Below are positions 37,544 through 41,829 of a DNA stretch of 64,000 nucleotides, piece by piece. This DNA comes from Cenarchaeum sp. Lineage in GTDB: Archaea > Thermoproteota > Nitrososphaeria > Nitrososphaerales > Nitrosopumilaceae. Each line of letters starts with the position of its first letter. Position 1 is the first letter of the stretch. A model generated the notes under the pieces. The model saw only the letters and a program-made list of their open reading frames with translations, was not told the origin of the DNA and ran no database searches. The stretch spans positions 832,001 through 896,000 of the forward strand of contig OZ242221.1 of NCBI GenBank assembly GCA_965206845.1, given 5' to 3'. A program made the position numbers and the translations under genes.

Positions 37544-38206
37544 TTATTGCGGGTCAGGTCTCTGCTCCCAGCGCTCATAGTACACCACGTCCTCCAGGTT
37601 CAGCCTGGGCAGCCATCCCGTCTCCTCAAGGTCGGGCCTCTTGGAGAACTTTTTCACATAACCCAGGCAGAGGTATGCAACCGGTACCACGTGGCTTGGC
37701 AGCCCCAGTGCCTCCCTCAGCGTGTCGTTTGAGAGTATGCTCACCCATCCGACGCCCACGCCCTCGGCTCTTGCGGCCAGCCACAGGTTCTGTACCGCAC
37801 AGCAGACGCTGTATACGCCGGTCTCCGGTATGCTGTTTCTACCTATCACAAACGGCCCAAACTTTGTGGGATCATACGTCACGCACACATTGACGGCCGA
37901 GTCCATGATTCCCTCCAGCTTGAGCGACAGGTACTTGGACCTTCTGGGCTCCTCGGCGCGCCCCGCGGCCAGGATCCTCTCCTCGTCAAACGATGCCTTT
38001 ACCATGCTTCTTGTGGCTGCGCTCCTTATCAGGATAAAGTTCCAGGGCTGCGAGAATCCCACAGACGGCGCGTGGTGTGCCGCATTGAGTATCTTGGTCA
38101 GAACCTCGTCTGGAATGGCGGTCTTGACAAACCCCGAGCGTACGTCCCTTCTGGAGAATATGGTCTTGTACAGCCCGTCCTTCTCCTCGTCGCTAAACTC
38201 ATTCAT
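37544..38206 (-). CDS. bluB: 5,6-dimethylbenzimidazole synthase
   Basis: RRDVR, AAHHAPSVGFSQPWNF, LKLEGI, CAVQNLWLAARAEG.GVGWVS. Confidence 0.93.
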   Translation of the reverse strand: MNEFSDEEKDGLYKTIFSRRDVRSGFVKTAIPDEVLTKILNAAHHAPSVGFSQPWNFILIRSAATRSMVKASFDEERILAAGRAEEPRRSKYLSLKLEGIMDSAVNVCVTYDPTKFGPFVIGRNSIPETGVYSVCCAVQNLWLAARAEGVGVGWVSILSNDTLREALGLPSHVVPVAYLCLGYVKKFSKRPDLEETGWLPRLNLEDVVYYERWEQRPDPQ

Positions 38207-38273
38207 GCTATCCACAATCTTGTTTTTATTCCATTAAGGTTAATAATGGTTACAGGGCCTTCCATAGTTTATT

Positions 38274-38347
38274 GGGCCGGTAGTCTAGCTGGTTAGGATA
38301 CCGCCTCGACACGGCGGTGATCGTGAGTTCGAATCTCTCTCGGCCCA
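38274..38347 (+). tRNA. tRNA-Val (GAC)
   Basis: Acceptor GGGCCGG/TCGGCCC-A; anticodon arm CCGCC-TC-GAC-AC-GGCGG; TTCGAAT T-loop. Confidence 0.88.
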
Positions 38348-38718
38348 CCTTCATCTTTTTCGGGCGTTGCGGCTGCACTTTGTGGCGTGTCGGTGCTGCC
38401 GCCAGGCGGGTTCCGCACGGCCGACCCGGACGGCCTTGCCCCGCACGCGGGGCCTCCCGGCCTGATTTTGGGGACATATGTATGGGCTGCCCACCAGCAG
38501 CATGGGGTCGGGTGGGGAGATCCACTGGGGCAAGCGCCCTGATCTGGCCGGGTGTGTCATGAAAGGGAATTATATACTTCGGTAGACATAACCACGCGCT
38601 GCCCTCGGATAGGGTTTTTGTTCGGGTCTCTCCACACAGTATCCACTCCCATCTGGGCGCCTGCAACCTGTCACTCCCTGACGGCCGTGACGGCACGGAC
38701 GGTCTGCATGGTATTGCC

Positions 38719-39926
38719 GGGGTTGGTGCGTAATTCTCCGAACCGCCTAGACCAGTCCGATACGTTCAATGATCCGCGATCTCCCGCACGCGGCAATGAG
38801 CGAACACAACAGACGGGAAAGATACTGGCAGTACTATGAACTGGCAAAGGAAGTCGAGGCACCTAGTCTGAAGAGGACGCTGATCGAGATAATCCGGGAG
38901 AACCCTTGCCCGCGCCGAGAAAACGGCAACAGGGGCCGTCCCCCGGTTCACTCCAAGGAGAAACTGGACTTTGCCTGTCTGCTGATGATGGCAGGAAACA
39001 ACACCTATCGCGGAGTCGAATCGGACCTGCGAGGCATGCGGACACCATGGGACAACGAGCCCGTCCCGGACCATACCACACTGGTCAGGCACCTCCAGAC
39101 GATACCGGTGGACTGGCTCGATCTGATCGTGGCCGAGACGGCCCGCCGTTGCATCAAAGAGGCGAACGAGGCGACGGGCCCGCTGGAAGCCGACAGCAGC
39201 GCGGCGGAGACCACTAGGTACGAATACGTCGAGAGGCCAAGCAGGAAGGAGCGCGACTTCGTCGAGACACGCCAAAAGACCTACTGGAAATACCACATAA
39301 CGGCCATCTTGGGCCTGCAGATCGTGCTGGCGGCGTTTACCACGCCCGGCAACATCAACGACACGACCATGCTTCCAGTCATGCTGGCTGAGATCAGGCA
39401 TCGCGGGTTTGACTTTGCGGGGAATTTCTTTGACGGGGACAAGGGGTACGACTCTGACTACAACTGCGAGCTGCTGTTCTGGATGGGCATGATCCCCAAC
39501 ATCAAGCAACGGAAGGATGCCGTCAACCGTGGCAAGTCGCACAGGAGGAAGGCAGCTGGCATGTTCAGCGATAGCGAGTACAGAAAGAGGATCCTGATAG
39601 AGGGCATCTTCGGGGCCGAGGAGACCCGGCGGCACCAGCTGCACTGCCGGTTCGTTCGGGAGGACAACCGGCGCCGGTTCGCCAAGGGAAGGGCGATCGC
39701 TTGGAACATCCGGGTCCTCAACCGGTTCGAGTGCGCCAACCGGCTAAACATACCGATACCCTCCTACGGCGGCATGGCGCACGTGGAGTGCGCCTGATGA
39801 TCCGACCTGTCAGTAGATGATCACGGCGTGCGGGCAACAAAGCCCGACACACACCAAAGCACCGCCGGTGAAGATGCGGTAGGAGACACACATGAGCAGG
39901 ACGGAGCAGAATTACGCACCAACCCC
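38719..39926 (+). mobile_element. IS5-family (IS4 superfamily) insertion sequence, about 1.2 kb
   Basis: Perfect 19-bp TIRs GGGGTTGGTGCGTAATTCT (38719-38737) / AGAATTACGCACCAACCCC (39908-39926); no TSD visible. Confidence 0.88.
38769..39797 (+). CDS. IS5-family DDE transposase
   Basis: GRPP, PDHTTL, ADSS (D), KYH, GDKGYDS (D), YRKRILIEGIFG (E). Confidence 0.9.
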   Translation: MIRDLPHAAMSEHNRRERYWQYYELAKEVEAPSLKRTLIEIIRENPCPRRENGNRGRPPVHSKEKLDFACLLMMAGNNTYRGVESDLRGMRTPWDNEPVPDHTTLVRHLQTIPVDWLDLIVAETARRCIKEANEATGPLEADSSAAETTRYEYVERPSRKERDFVETRQKTYWKYHITAILGLQIVLAAFTTPGNINDTTMLPVMLAEIRHRGFDFAGNFFDGDKGYDSDYNCELLFWMGMIPNIKQRKDAVNRGKSHRRKAAGMFSDSEYRKRILIEGIFGAEETRRHQLHCRFVREDNRRRFAKGRAIAWNIRVLNRFECANRLNIPIPSYGGMAHVECA

Positions 39927-40710
39927 GAGGGCAAAGGACGACGACATATCCAAGATGTATTCCGAGCTCTCAAGGAAGCGAGGGGGACGCGGGAACAGGC
40001 GCATCAGGCATGATGCCAAGGAAGGCGCTAACGGCGGGAGCAAAAGCGCGGACGGCGGGAACGGCAGCGGCAGCAGCAACAACACCAACGGCAACAACAG
40101 GGACAAGCCGAGGAAGCCAAAGTCAAGGGGCTACAAAGAGCTGCAGAGGAAGATCCGGAAGAAGCGCGAGAAGCTTGCCAACCGCCAGACGAACTGGGAG
40201 CGACACGCGTCTAAGAGGATAGCCGATGGCGCCGGCACCGTGGCCATGGAGGACCTCAACCTAAACAACATGACCGCCAAGGCCAAAGGCAAGGGAAGCT
40301 CGGCCAAGACCGGGCTCAACCGCGAGATGGCCTACTCCAAGCCGGGGACTTTCCAGCGGCAGATCAGGGGGGCGTGTGATAACGCTGGCGTGACGGTCAT
40401 AATGGTCGACCCCAAGGGAACGAGCACGACCTGCCACATGTGCGGCCACGCTGACGGGAACTCCCGGATATCGCAGGGGGAGTTCCAATGCACGAATGAC
40501 AAGTGTGACAATGACATCAACGCGGACATCAATGCCGCGCATAACATTGCCGCCAAGGCGGCAGGGCGGCCGGGAAGGTCGTCCAAAGGCGCGAGACACC
40601 AGCGCGGGATTGCTCCCGCGCGCTCTGTGAACCAGACGCGAGAACCAAGCGTGGGAGGGATTGCAAGAGCGCCAGAAAAAGGCAAGGGTACTGCGTACTC
40701 TTGTATATAA
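39892..40710 (+). pseudogene. tnpB: N-terminally truncated TnpB (RNA-guided endonuclease family)
   Basis: RuvC-II VAMEDL, K.GLNR, VDPKGTSTTCHMCG...FQCTNDKC, RuvC-III NADINAAHNI; RuvC-I and the N-terminal lobe are absent; first 12 codons come from the IS5 right end. Confidence 0.88.
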
Positions 40711-40735
40711 TTCCCTCATGAAAGGCTGGTGGTAA
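40560..40735 (+). ncRNA. Candidate omegaRNA (TnpB guide scaffold + flank-derived guide)
   Basis: Hairpins at 40564-40584, 40602-40621 and 40683-40703 between the RuvC-III codons and the right TIR, where TnpB omegaRNAs are normally encoded. Confidence 0.4.
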
Positions 40736-41213
40736 ACTCCTTCTCTATCAGGCTCCAGGAAGTCTCCACCGTGATTACCCCCTCGGCTGTGTAACGGACG
40801 CTGCTGCCGCTGGTTATCATGCCGTAGGTCTCCGTATTGGCAGGATCCAGGTTCAGTACGAACTTGCTCTTTAGCGGAATCTCAACACCAGAATAAAACG
40901 CAGCCCTTCCCGGCATGGCAATATCCTCGGTAGAATACTGCCCGGTGCCCATAAGGGTGCCGTCCGCATACAGGTCATAGGTTATCAGGGGAACGGTAAA
41001 CGTCTTTTCGCTGGGATTCCCTATGAGAAAGATCACCTCCAGCTCCGCCCTGTCATCAATGTTGTTTACCGCGATCACATCCACGCTCTCCAGATTGATG
41101 GTCACCTTTTCCAGCTCGGGGTTCTCAAGGCTGGCAAAGAACACAAACCAGCCCATCAGTGCCAGCAGGCCAGCGATGGCCGCATAGACTACCAGCTTGC
41201 TTTGAAGTATCAT
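40716..41213 (-). CDS. LEA-2/WHy-like domain membrane-anchored protein
   Basis: N-terminal TM; F.IGNPS....V..I.YDLYADG..MG.G; stop codon lies inside the TSD. Confidence 0.7.
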   Translation of the reverse strand: MILQSKLVVYAAIAGLLALMGWFVFFASLENPELEKVTINLESVDVIAVNNIDDRAELEVIFLIGNPSEKTFTVPLITYDLYADGTLMGTGQYSTEDIAMPGRAAFYSGVEIPLKSKFVLNLDPANTETYGMITSGSSVRYTAEGVITVETSWSLIEKEFTTSLS

Positions 41214-41334
41214 TCCCAACCTAGTGCTTGCCGAACCGCTAAAAAACCTTGCCAAGCAGCACGATCCTGCTGCGCGATACGCACATCCGGCACGCAATCC
41301 AAATACATAATATTCATCCGGGGTACCTGCAATC

Positions 41335-41829
41335 ATGCCGATAGAGGGTGCCATAATTACGTGGGCTCATCTGGTCTCTGCGGCCATATGGGTAGGCGGC
41401 GGAATATTTCTGGGAGCGGTTCTGGCTCCGGTTCTCAAGCACACGTCCCTCTCACTGGAAGAGAGGATCGGTCTCATGATCAGAGTGGGCAGGAGGTTTA
41501 ACATGATAGGGGTCCCTGCCCTTGGGGTGCTGATCGTGACGGGAATCTACACCTCGCGCGGCCTTCTGTCTCATCCGAATCTCCTGCTGGAGTCAAGCTA
41601 TGGCGTCTACCTCACGGTCAAGATGATTCTTGTGGTAGCGGTAATCATCACGTATGTGGTCCATGTCAGGGTGATCAACCGGAGTGTGGAGGAGAAGATA
41701 ATGTCAAAGGAGCTCTCCGAGGCCCAGGTGCAACGGGTACGAAGGAAGATCATCGTGCTGGGAGAGCTGGTTGCCGTAATGTCCGTGGCAATTCTGTTCT
41801 TTGCGGCCCTACTGGATGCCGGCGTCTGA
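41335..41829 (+). CDS. CopD-like membrane protein
   Basis: WAHLVSAAIWVGG, RRF, TG, YG..L.VK; four TM helices. Confidence 0.75.
   Translation: MPIEGAIITWAHLVSAAIWVGGGIFLGAVLAPVLKHTSLSLEERIGLMIRVGRRFNMIGVPALGVLIVTGIYTSRGLLSHPNLLLESSYGVYLTVKMILVVAVIITYVVHVRVINRSVEEKIMSKELSEAQVQRVRRKIIVLGELVAVMSVAILFFAALLDAGV

Follow-up and report, generated by a model that had tools for sequence, protein, structure and literature searches.

A probable guide-RNA module at the right end of TnpB elements with IS1595-type ends in a Cenarchaeum genome

The sequence analyzed here (the window) is a 64,000-nt stretch of a Cenarchaeum sp. genome (assembly GCA_965206845.1, contig OZ242221.1, positions 832,001 to 896,000 of the forward strand), in which an earlier note had described three hairpins at the end of a tnpB-like gene and proposed that they belong to an omegaRNA, the guide RNA of a TnpB nuclease. 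The hairpins form the right end of a composite element of 2151 bp (38565-40715). The element is bounded by 13-nt terminal inverted repeats (TIRs) that match perfectly as reverse complements (38565-38577 and 40703-40715), and by an 8-bp target-site duplication (TSD) with identical direct copies at 38557-38564 and 40716-40723. The same 13-mer bounds about 15 elements in the genome. Three segments lie between the ends: a 153-nt left arm of a TnpB element (38565-38717), which shares 82-91% identity with two full-length copies at their left ends; a nested IS5-like insertion sequence (IS) of 1210 bp (38718-39927) with perfect 20-nt TIRs, which is not part of the TnpB element proper; and the right arm of the TnpB element (39928-40715), which comprises the C-terminal half of tnpB (RuvC-II, zinc finger, and RuvC-III) and an RNA scaffold. 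All features to which a strand is assigned are on the forward strand. The right arm is 74-83% identical to approximately 17 genomic copies, and its protein matched Pfam Cas12f1-like_TNB (6e-16).

The nested IS carries a DDE transposase open reading frame (ORF) at 38769-39797 (Pfam DDE_Tnp_1 and NCBIfam IS5) and has six further copies in the genome with 95-99% identity (seven in all). Those copies are flanked by TSDs of 8-9 bp, and the copy in the window has none. Approximately 1 kb found between the left and right arms of full-length relatives is missing beside it, and an IS-mediated deletion is suggested by the lack of a TSD together with this adjoining loss in the host element. The remaining tnpB sequence is read as a chimeric ORF of 272 aa (39892-40710), which starts at an ATG within the nested IS and stops at a TAA within the right TIR. 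It aligned with only residues 323-574 of the intact paralog P0001 (81% identity), and the first ~320 residues are absent, including RuvC-I, as its invariant aspartate (D296) precedes residue 323. The window copy is therefore a dead, defective element whose TnpB N-terminal half was taken by the nested IS5-like element and the ~1-kb deletion. As it lacks RuvC-I, its RNA could act only with TnpB supplied by another copy.

The 1.65-Mb genome contains approximately 15 relatives of the outer element that are full-length (1.83-2.64 kb), each bounded by the same TIR and each encoding one long protein. An 8-bp TSD with no more than one mismatch was identified for 12 of these relatives and for the window copy (13 of the 15 copies examined), and also for a copy in a relative (L053). 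The intact paralog P0001 matched the NCBIfam model guided_TnpB over residues 44-520 with 116.8 bits (cut-off of 100). D296 of RuvC-I was invariant in all eight aligned proteins, and the glutamate motif of RuvC-II and the aspartate motif of RuvC-III were present in the consensus. The family thus possesses the D-E-D triad and zinc finger of TnpB, unlike the window copy, which starts at about residue 323. The best relatives of the protein among solved structures were Cas12f chains (1e-10). The genome holds at least five intact tnpB paralogs, one of the intact copies lying at C1:748142-750072. A protein search with TnpB gave weak matches only, in 4 of 40 sampled relatives; a scan of genome contigs retrieved one close relative and one spurious match, and a scan of metagenome contigs with the TnpB alignment retrieved no relative.

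All three stems of the earlier note were present in the sequence. They belong to a larger omegaRNA-type scaffold of eight helices (H1-H8, 40521-40704), which was derived from RNAalifold and pair counts. The array had been proposed to run from 40560 to the TIR; it does end at the TIR, and it begins further upstream, with H1 (40521-40539) inside the RuvC-III codons (approximately 40512-40545, just upstream of the three stems) and H2 at 40548-40563. H3 corresponds to the first stem (40564-40571 with 40577-40584), H5 (40604-19) to the second, which had been given as 40602-40609 with 40614-40621, and H8 (40682-40704) to the third, given as 40683-40691 with 40695-40703. The third stem and the right TIR have a single base in common (40703, the first base of the TIR), and the TIR forms the unpaired 3' end of the scaffold. 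Long-range helices pair 40588-92 with 40669-73, 40623-26 with 40654-57, and 40635-39 with 40649-53. RNAalifold also returned two mutually exclusive pairings of the middle part, both of which use the conserved segment 40667-40673, and neither is preferred. A pseudoknot between the TIR and upstream G-rich loops was inspected by eye; at most 4 bp were found, with no informative variation. The predicted fold of 40540-40740 reached -85 kcal/mol (z = -3.9), which was equaled by none of 200 shuffled sequences, although this fold contains spurious pairing with the flank.

The conservation of the helices was evaluated in an alignment of 16 genomic copies that covered the last ~210 nt and 25 nt of flank. 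RNAalifold identified 47 pairs in the eight helices, extending from the RuvC-III codons to the TIR. In these pairs, 97.9% of the cells were paired, compared with 35-50% when the partners were slid by 1-3 columns; both sides had changed at nine pairs (44 cells), and the covariation of 0.221 exceeded that of the slid controls (0.03-0.08) and was equaled by none of 500 shuffles. The flank beyond the TIR was not conserved among the copies. A covariance model of the last 155 nt of the module (R1) matched five other genomes of this family at 82 places (E <= 0.01; 32 in G115, 24 in G080, 14 in G125, 10 in G098, and 2 in G170). The window sequence (40561-40715) scored 176.5 bits, being itself part of the training set. 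In 65 distinct sequences from the six genomes, compensatory changes were observed at 27 of 33 pairs (236 cells; 0 of 500 shuffles), in an alignment that was fitted to the R1 model and is therefore biased towards the structure. The earlier note would have been undermined by a lack of conservation or covariation of the stems among copies, and the comparison came out the opposite way. The stems were not conserved equally in the six-genome alignment (97% of cells paired for the first, 84% for the third, and 55% for the second), and the second stem holds mainly within the subfamily of this genome. Two pairs of H3 are G-U in nearly all sequences; they fit the sense strand only, and the fold is therefore strand-specific.

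The module occupies the final ~65 codons of tnpB and terminates within the right TIR, as expected from the proposed omegaRNA-like placement across the tnpB 3' terminus as far as the end of the transposon; a conserved structured RNA in this position is a characteristic of OMEGA systems. The mean pairwise differences at codon positions 1, 2, and 3 were 0.137, 0.116, and 0.333 in the tnpB core, and 0.159, 0.167, and 0.140 in the tail. The peptides encoded by the tail were almost wholly different between genera. Because the tail lacks an excess of third-position changes and its peptides diverge between genera, its sequence is shaped by RNA and not by protein.

The boundaries of the element and the empty site predicted in the earlier note were confirmed by contigs from RNA libraries. 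In X5 and in X6, a single contig runs from 38556 directly into 40716, with 10 ambiguous letters at the joint; the 2159 bases that are skipped correspond to the element and one TSD copy, so that the TSD is present once in these contigs. The ambiguity matches the sequence of the occupied left junction, which agrees with the predicted guide in its first 10 nt only, as had been noted. In X7, one contig without the element has other sequence before 40718. Two short X5 contigs over 40517-40622 do not derive from this locus, because they have a loose end typical of paralog copies. All four RNA runs consist of assembled contigs, which are unable to show the ends, strand, or level of an RNA, and the parts left uncovered in them carry no evidential weight.

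From the architecture of omegaRNAs, the guide would start directly after the right TIR, with the right TSD copy as its putative nucleotides 1-8 followed by the flank (40716-40735, the length not being fixed). The target-adjacent motif (TAM) would then lie directly 5' of the matching sequence at the opposite flank, with the G at 38556 as its putative last base, and a base conserved at position -1 of the left TSD is predicted. Conservation 5' of the TSD, which had been proposed as a check, was examined in insertions whose flanks were all oriented by tnpB. A G at -1 was found in all 16 left flanks from this genome and L053. Of 40 loci fetched from G115, G080, G125, and G098, 24 were kept, 12 were dropped for an unmatched TSD, and 4 had no left TIR; the kept loci (from G115, G080, and G125, with a left TIR and a TSD of no more than one mismatch) had the G in 23 of 24 cases. 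The two sets together gave 39 of 40, or 36 of 37 when only TSDs with no more than one mismatch were counted. GTGTG had been read at the TAM position; its last G is this conserved base, and positions -2 to -6 showed no conservation in the 40 insertions. A T was present at TSD position 1 in 33 of 40.

Eight elements with the same ends that carry a transposase and no tnpB were used as a control, and G was observed at 4 of their 16 flank positions (both orientations counted), significantly below 39 of 40 (Fisher test, p = 4e-8). In other TnpB subfamilies with related ends (L107, L128, L129, L132, L133, L139, and L146-L154, from G115 and G080), G was at -1 in none of 13 cases and a pyrimidine in 11, and these subfamilies may read a different TAM. 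No C enrichment was detected after the right TSD, and thus there is no mirror-image signal. Given the two controls and this asymmetry, the G follows this TnpB/RNA lineage and its orientation, not the transposase. The census thus places a TAM-like base at the opposite flank, 5' of the guide-matching sequence, as in OMEGA systems, which is a comparative result and not an assay.

The only DDE gene inside the window element is that of the nested IS5-like IS with its own TIRs, and no transposase of their own was found in the window element and ~60 relatives examined. The 13-nt TIRs and 8-bp TSD do not agree with an IS200/IS605 element, which would have no TIR, no TSD, and a Y1 TnpA. When all occurrences of the TIR in G115 were listed, a set of longer elements emerged that are bounded by these 13-nt ends and flanked by perfect 8-bp TSDs. 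Two of them (L105, 101-2790, and L106, 101-2937) have the identical 13-nt TIR and encode transposases matching DDE_Tnp_IS1595 (3e-40 and 1e-40). Six more elements with an IS1595-type transposase and such ends were identified in G115 and G098. Among the 13 transposase loci examined, these eight had TIR ends and perfect TSDs, and no TIR pair was found in the other five. The genome studied here has an intact transposase homolog with 60% identity (C1:27542-28444) and a decayed one beside a lone TIR. The IS1595 family (Pfam DDE_Tnp_IS1595 and Zn_ribbon_IS1595) therefore shares the 13-nt ends and the 8-bp TSDs of the window element and its ~60 relatives and differs from them in encoding a transposase. 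Duplications of 8 bp are typical of IS1595 members. Since the same ends and TSD flank elements encoding an IS1595 transposase, and the TnpB elements are devoid of a transposase, the latter are non-autonomous riders in an IS1595-type shell. The cargo of L105 and L106 is a fusion of a DNA methylase with an HNH nuclease.

Other partner transposases were rejected. IS66 was considered as the partner because the L053 element contains an IS66-family transposase, which alignment to a full copy assigned to a separate IS, nested in the element, that has other TIRs and an 8-bp TSD of its own; the IS66-type elements of G080 also carry those other ends, unlike the TIRs of the TnpB elements. Eight multi-copy IS groups of the genome (IS5-, IS4-, IS630-, and IS3-like) were examined, and none of the seven whose ends were readable has these TIRs. 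For the remaining group (IS4-like, 407 aa), no pair of copies aligned and the ends were not readable.

Taken together, the stretch described in the earlier note is probably the 3' two-thirds of an omegaRNA (reRNA)-type module of ~195 nt, belonging to a TnpB family that rides in an IS1595-type shell without a transposase. The proposed mechanism follows the restorative-homing model that has been described for IS605 and IS607 (PMC13565253). Transcription in the direction of tnpB would run through the TIR into the flank, and the RNA would end in a guide consisting of the TSD and the next ~8-12 flank bases. TnpB with this RNA would recognize the empty site as G, then the TSD, and then the right flank. 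This site would be restored on excision, the break closing over the TSD; TnpB would then cut the vacated site, and repair from an element-bearing copy would reinstate the element. The occupied site would be spared, because the right junction has the C of the TIR where the TAM needs a G and the left junction matches the guide for 10 nt only. The G in 39 of 40 insertions could then be a mark of survivorship, in which TAM-adjacent copies would be restored after excision and others would move on. The window copy would contribute RNA only, in combination with TnpB from one of the at least five intact paralogs. As part of this interpretation, we infer that the census reflects restorative homing, or gene drive, acting on a DDE cut-and-paste transposon in archaea.

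Several observations weigh against this interpretation. The window copy is unable to encode a working TnpB, and no contig crossing the right end from inside the element was seen in the four contig-only runs. Rfam gave no match in 38000-41500 at E <= 10 other than in the tRNA region (38274-38350; a tRNA and an overlapping weak match). A one-base TAM, even with a preferred T after it, is much shorter than the 4-5 nt TAMs given for IS605 TnpBs (PMC13565253). The candidate left flanks of the 12 dropped loci had a G in only 3 cases, although the boundaries of these loci are unreliable. In 22 of 24 elements from other genomes and 10 of 15 copies from this one, the reading frame crosses the scaffold without a stop before the TAA of the TIR, and this open frame (40546-40710 in the window, and in relatives) is not accounted for by a pure RNA constraint. 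H8 is also part of a longer TIR of 24-30 nt in some copies and could thus serve a transposase as DNA.

The open frame bears on an alternative in which the module acts in cis on the tnpB mRNA (in termination, translation control, or stabilization of the 3' end) and carries no guide, and the G has another cause. No RNA ends were seen in the contig-only runs, and because the ORF of most copies crosses the module and stops within the TIR, there must be an interplay between ribosomes and the structure. This alternative is nevertheless unlikely, as it leaves unexplained an orientation-specific G that stands one base before the TSD and is confined to this TnpB subfamily. It also does not fit the short elements of 369 bp and 641 bp, which keep the scaffold and have no room for a full-length tnpB, and the membership of the intact copies in TnpB predicts an omegaRNA at this place from what is described for such proteins in PMC10691335.

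The helices might instead act as DNA, that is, as subterminal transposase sites or hairpins at the right end with no role as RNA. H8 lies directly next to the TIR and has a mirrored counterpart at the left end of several copies, the TIR extends to 24-30 nt in e411, e770, e992, e1188, and e1049, and two copies (L017 and L020) have a long inverted second module at the left end. However, the eight transposase-encoding elements with the same TIR lack the module (no R1 match above 12.8 bits), most left ends are devoid of it, and it extends 190 nt inwards to the RuvC-III codons, far past usual transposase sites. On the opposite strand, the two unvarying G-U pairs of H3 would become C-A mismatches. 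A DNA function alone is thus quite improbable.

The inverted second modules were located at 3224-3382 of L017 (C1:1188043-1189924; 123.6 bits) and at 171-321 of L020 (C1:1049606-1051551; 78.3 bits). Both elements are full-length, and both have a C after the right TSD (a G on the other strand), a coincidence of two cases only. These modules are candidates for a second, outward-reading guide RNA.

A further alternative concerns the G, which would stem from the transposase preferring certain targets instead of marking a TAM; the scaffold could still be an omegaRNA, and the census would be uninformative on it. Weak target preferences are common among DDE transposases, and AT-rich TSDs are common to the TnpB-bearing and transposase-bearing elements. 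A preference for G should also be visible in transposase-only elements with the same TIR and in the TnpB subfamilies with related ends (4 of 16 and 0 of 13, respectively), and a symmetric transposase dimer would be expected to leave a mirror signal on the other flank. We consider such a preference a very doubtful source of the G. The idea that the conservation is that of a translated C-terminal tail of TnpB, with stems incidental to GC-rich coding, agrees with the frame being open to the TIR in most copies and with the sole length difference in H2 being in frame (9 or 12 nt), but it is barely credible because the tail has no third-position excess (2.4-2.9-fold in the core), the pairs are kept while the peptides diverge almost completely between genera, and the compensatory changes fall on first and second codon positions.

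Beside the omegaRNA interpretation with homing, a more speculative variant was considered, in which TAM reading by TnpB and the capture of targets by the IS1595-type transposase are physically linked. The nuclease and RNA bound at the right end would dock the transpososome on TAM-bearing DNA, and integration would follow one base past the G. Such coupling is improbable; if true, it would represent a natural precursor of CRISPR-associated transposition that operates independently of a guide.

Several other elements and genes were recorded. Short TIR-bounded derivatives (369-706 bp) with no room for a full-length tnpB are present at C1:1178387-1178755, 938659-939364, and G115 C1:2089312-2089952. 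The scaffold is mostly kept in the first (369 bp) and third (641 bp) of them, and the second retains only a 46-nt piece. These derivatives may represent standalone guide RNAs. In G115, a 2578-bp TnpB element (L063, C1:1972621-1975198) contains an IS630-like DDE_3 transposase gene, which is probably another nested IS. The copy of the TnpB element in L053 (1716-5882) carries two insertions: 21 nt inside the left end (the 13-nt TIR plus the 8-bp TSD of the insert) lies an IS66-family IS flanked by that TSD, and tnpB is split by an insert of ~230 bp resembling a miniature inverted-repeat transposable element. The flanks of L053 match this genome near C1:976 kb. A tRNA-Val (GAC) gene is located at 38274-38349 of the window, ~208 nt upstream of the insertion site. 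Five TFIIB-like genes are present in the 1.65-Mb genome (C1:1563632-1564615 and four paralogs), which marks the host as an archaeon.

Parts of this arrangement are already in print. The DDE-1 to DDE-6 branches of TnpB (Altae-Tran et al. 2023, PNAS, PMC10691335) are likewise found within elements bounded by inverted terminal repeats; no more than 250 bp separate the tnpB 3' end from the transposon end, which suggests a guide derived from the flank, and solo TnpBs share the ends of transposase-bearing elements and are hence mobilized in trans. In the main text of that paper, IS630 is the sole DDE partner named, IS1595, ISXO2, and IS66 are absent, and DDE-linked TnpBs are described without a TAM, a guide geometry, or an RNA structure; its supplements may list this family. 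Our literature searches for IS1595 or IS66 with TnpB retrieved no relevant paper, and those for a TAM or an insertion-site census of DDE-linked TnpBs retrieved nothing relevant, in each case within the one library that was covered.

As described in PMC13565253, the TnpB-omegaRNA systems of IS200/IS605 (ISDra2 type) are similar to the window family in having a structured RNA over the 3' end of tnpB, a guide from the DNA beyond the right end, a TAM at the left flank, and cutting of the vacated site so that repair restores the element. IS605 has no TIR, no TSD, a Y1 transposase, and a TAM of 4-5 nt that doubles as the transposase target, whereas the window family has TIRs, a variable 8-bp TSD that would supply the first guide bases, a single conserved G as the putative TAM, and no such transposase preference. 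Fanzor in eukaryotic DDE transposons is also similar, being a TnpB-like nuclease with a 3' guide RNA in cut-and-paste elements with TIRs and TSDs; there, the TAM includes the 5' TSD, and the 3' TSD falls within the scaffold (PMC13565253). In the window family, the 8-bp TSD varies in sequence and the conserved base is found outside the duplication, and therefore the TSD cannot be the TAM, unlike in Fanzor elements.

The compact scaffold, the TAM, and a guide geometry in which the variable TSD would form the start of the guide are open to direct testing. TnpB is understood mainly in IS605 and IS607, where the transposase itself inserts at the TAM and thereby masks the effect of the nuclease on persistence. 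The transposase of the family described here shows no preference for the G, and yet 39 of 40 TnpB-bearing insertions lie one base after a G, a mark not shared by transposase-only relatives with the same ends. In PMC13565253, an effect of homing on the persistence of DDE elements in prokaryotes is discussed as no more than a possibility. If the G is the TAM, the census would provide comparative evidence that homing by TnpB decides which insertions of a DDE transposon last.

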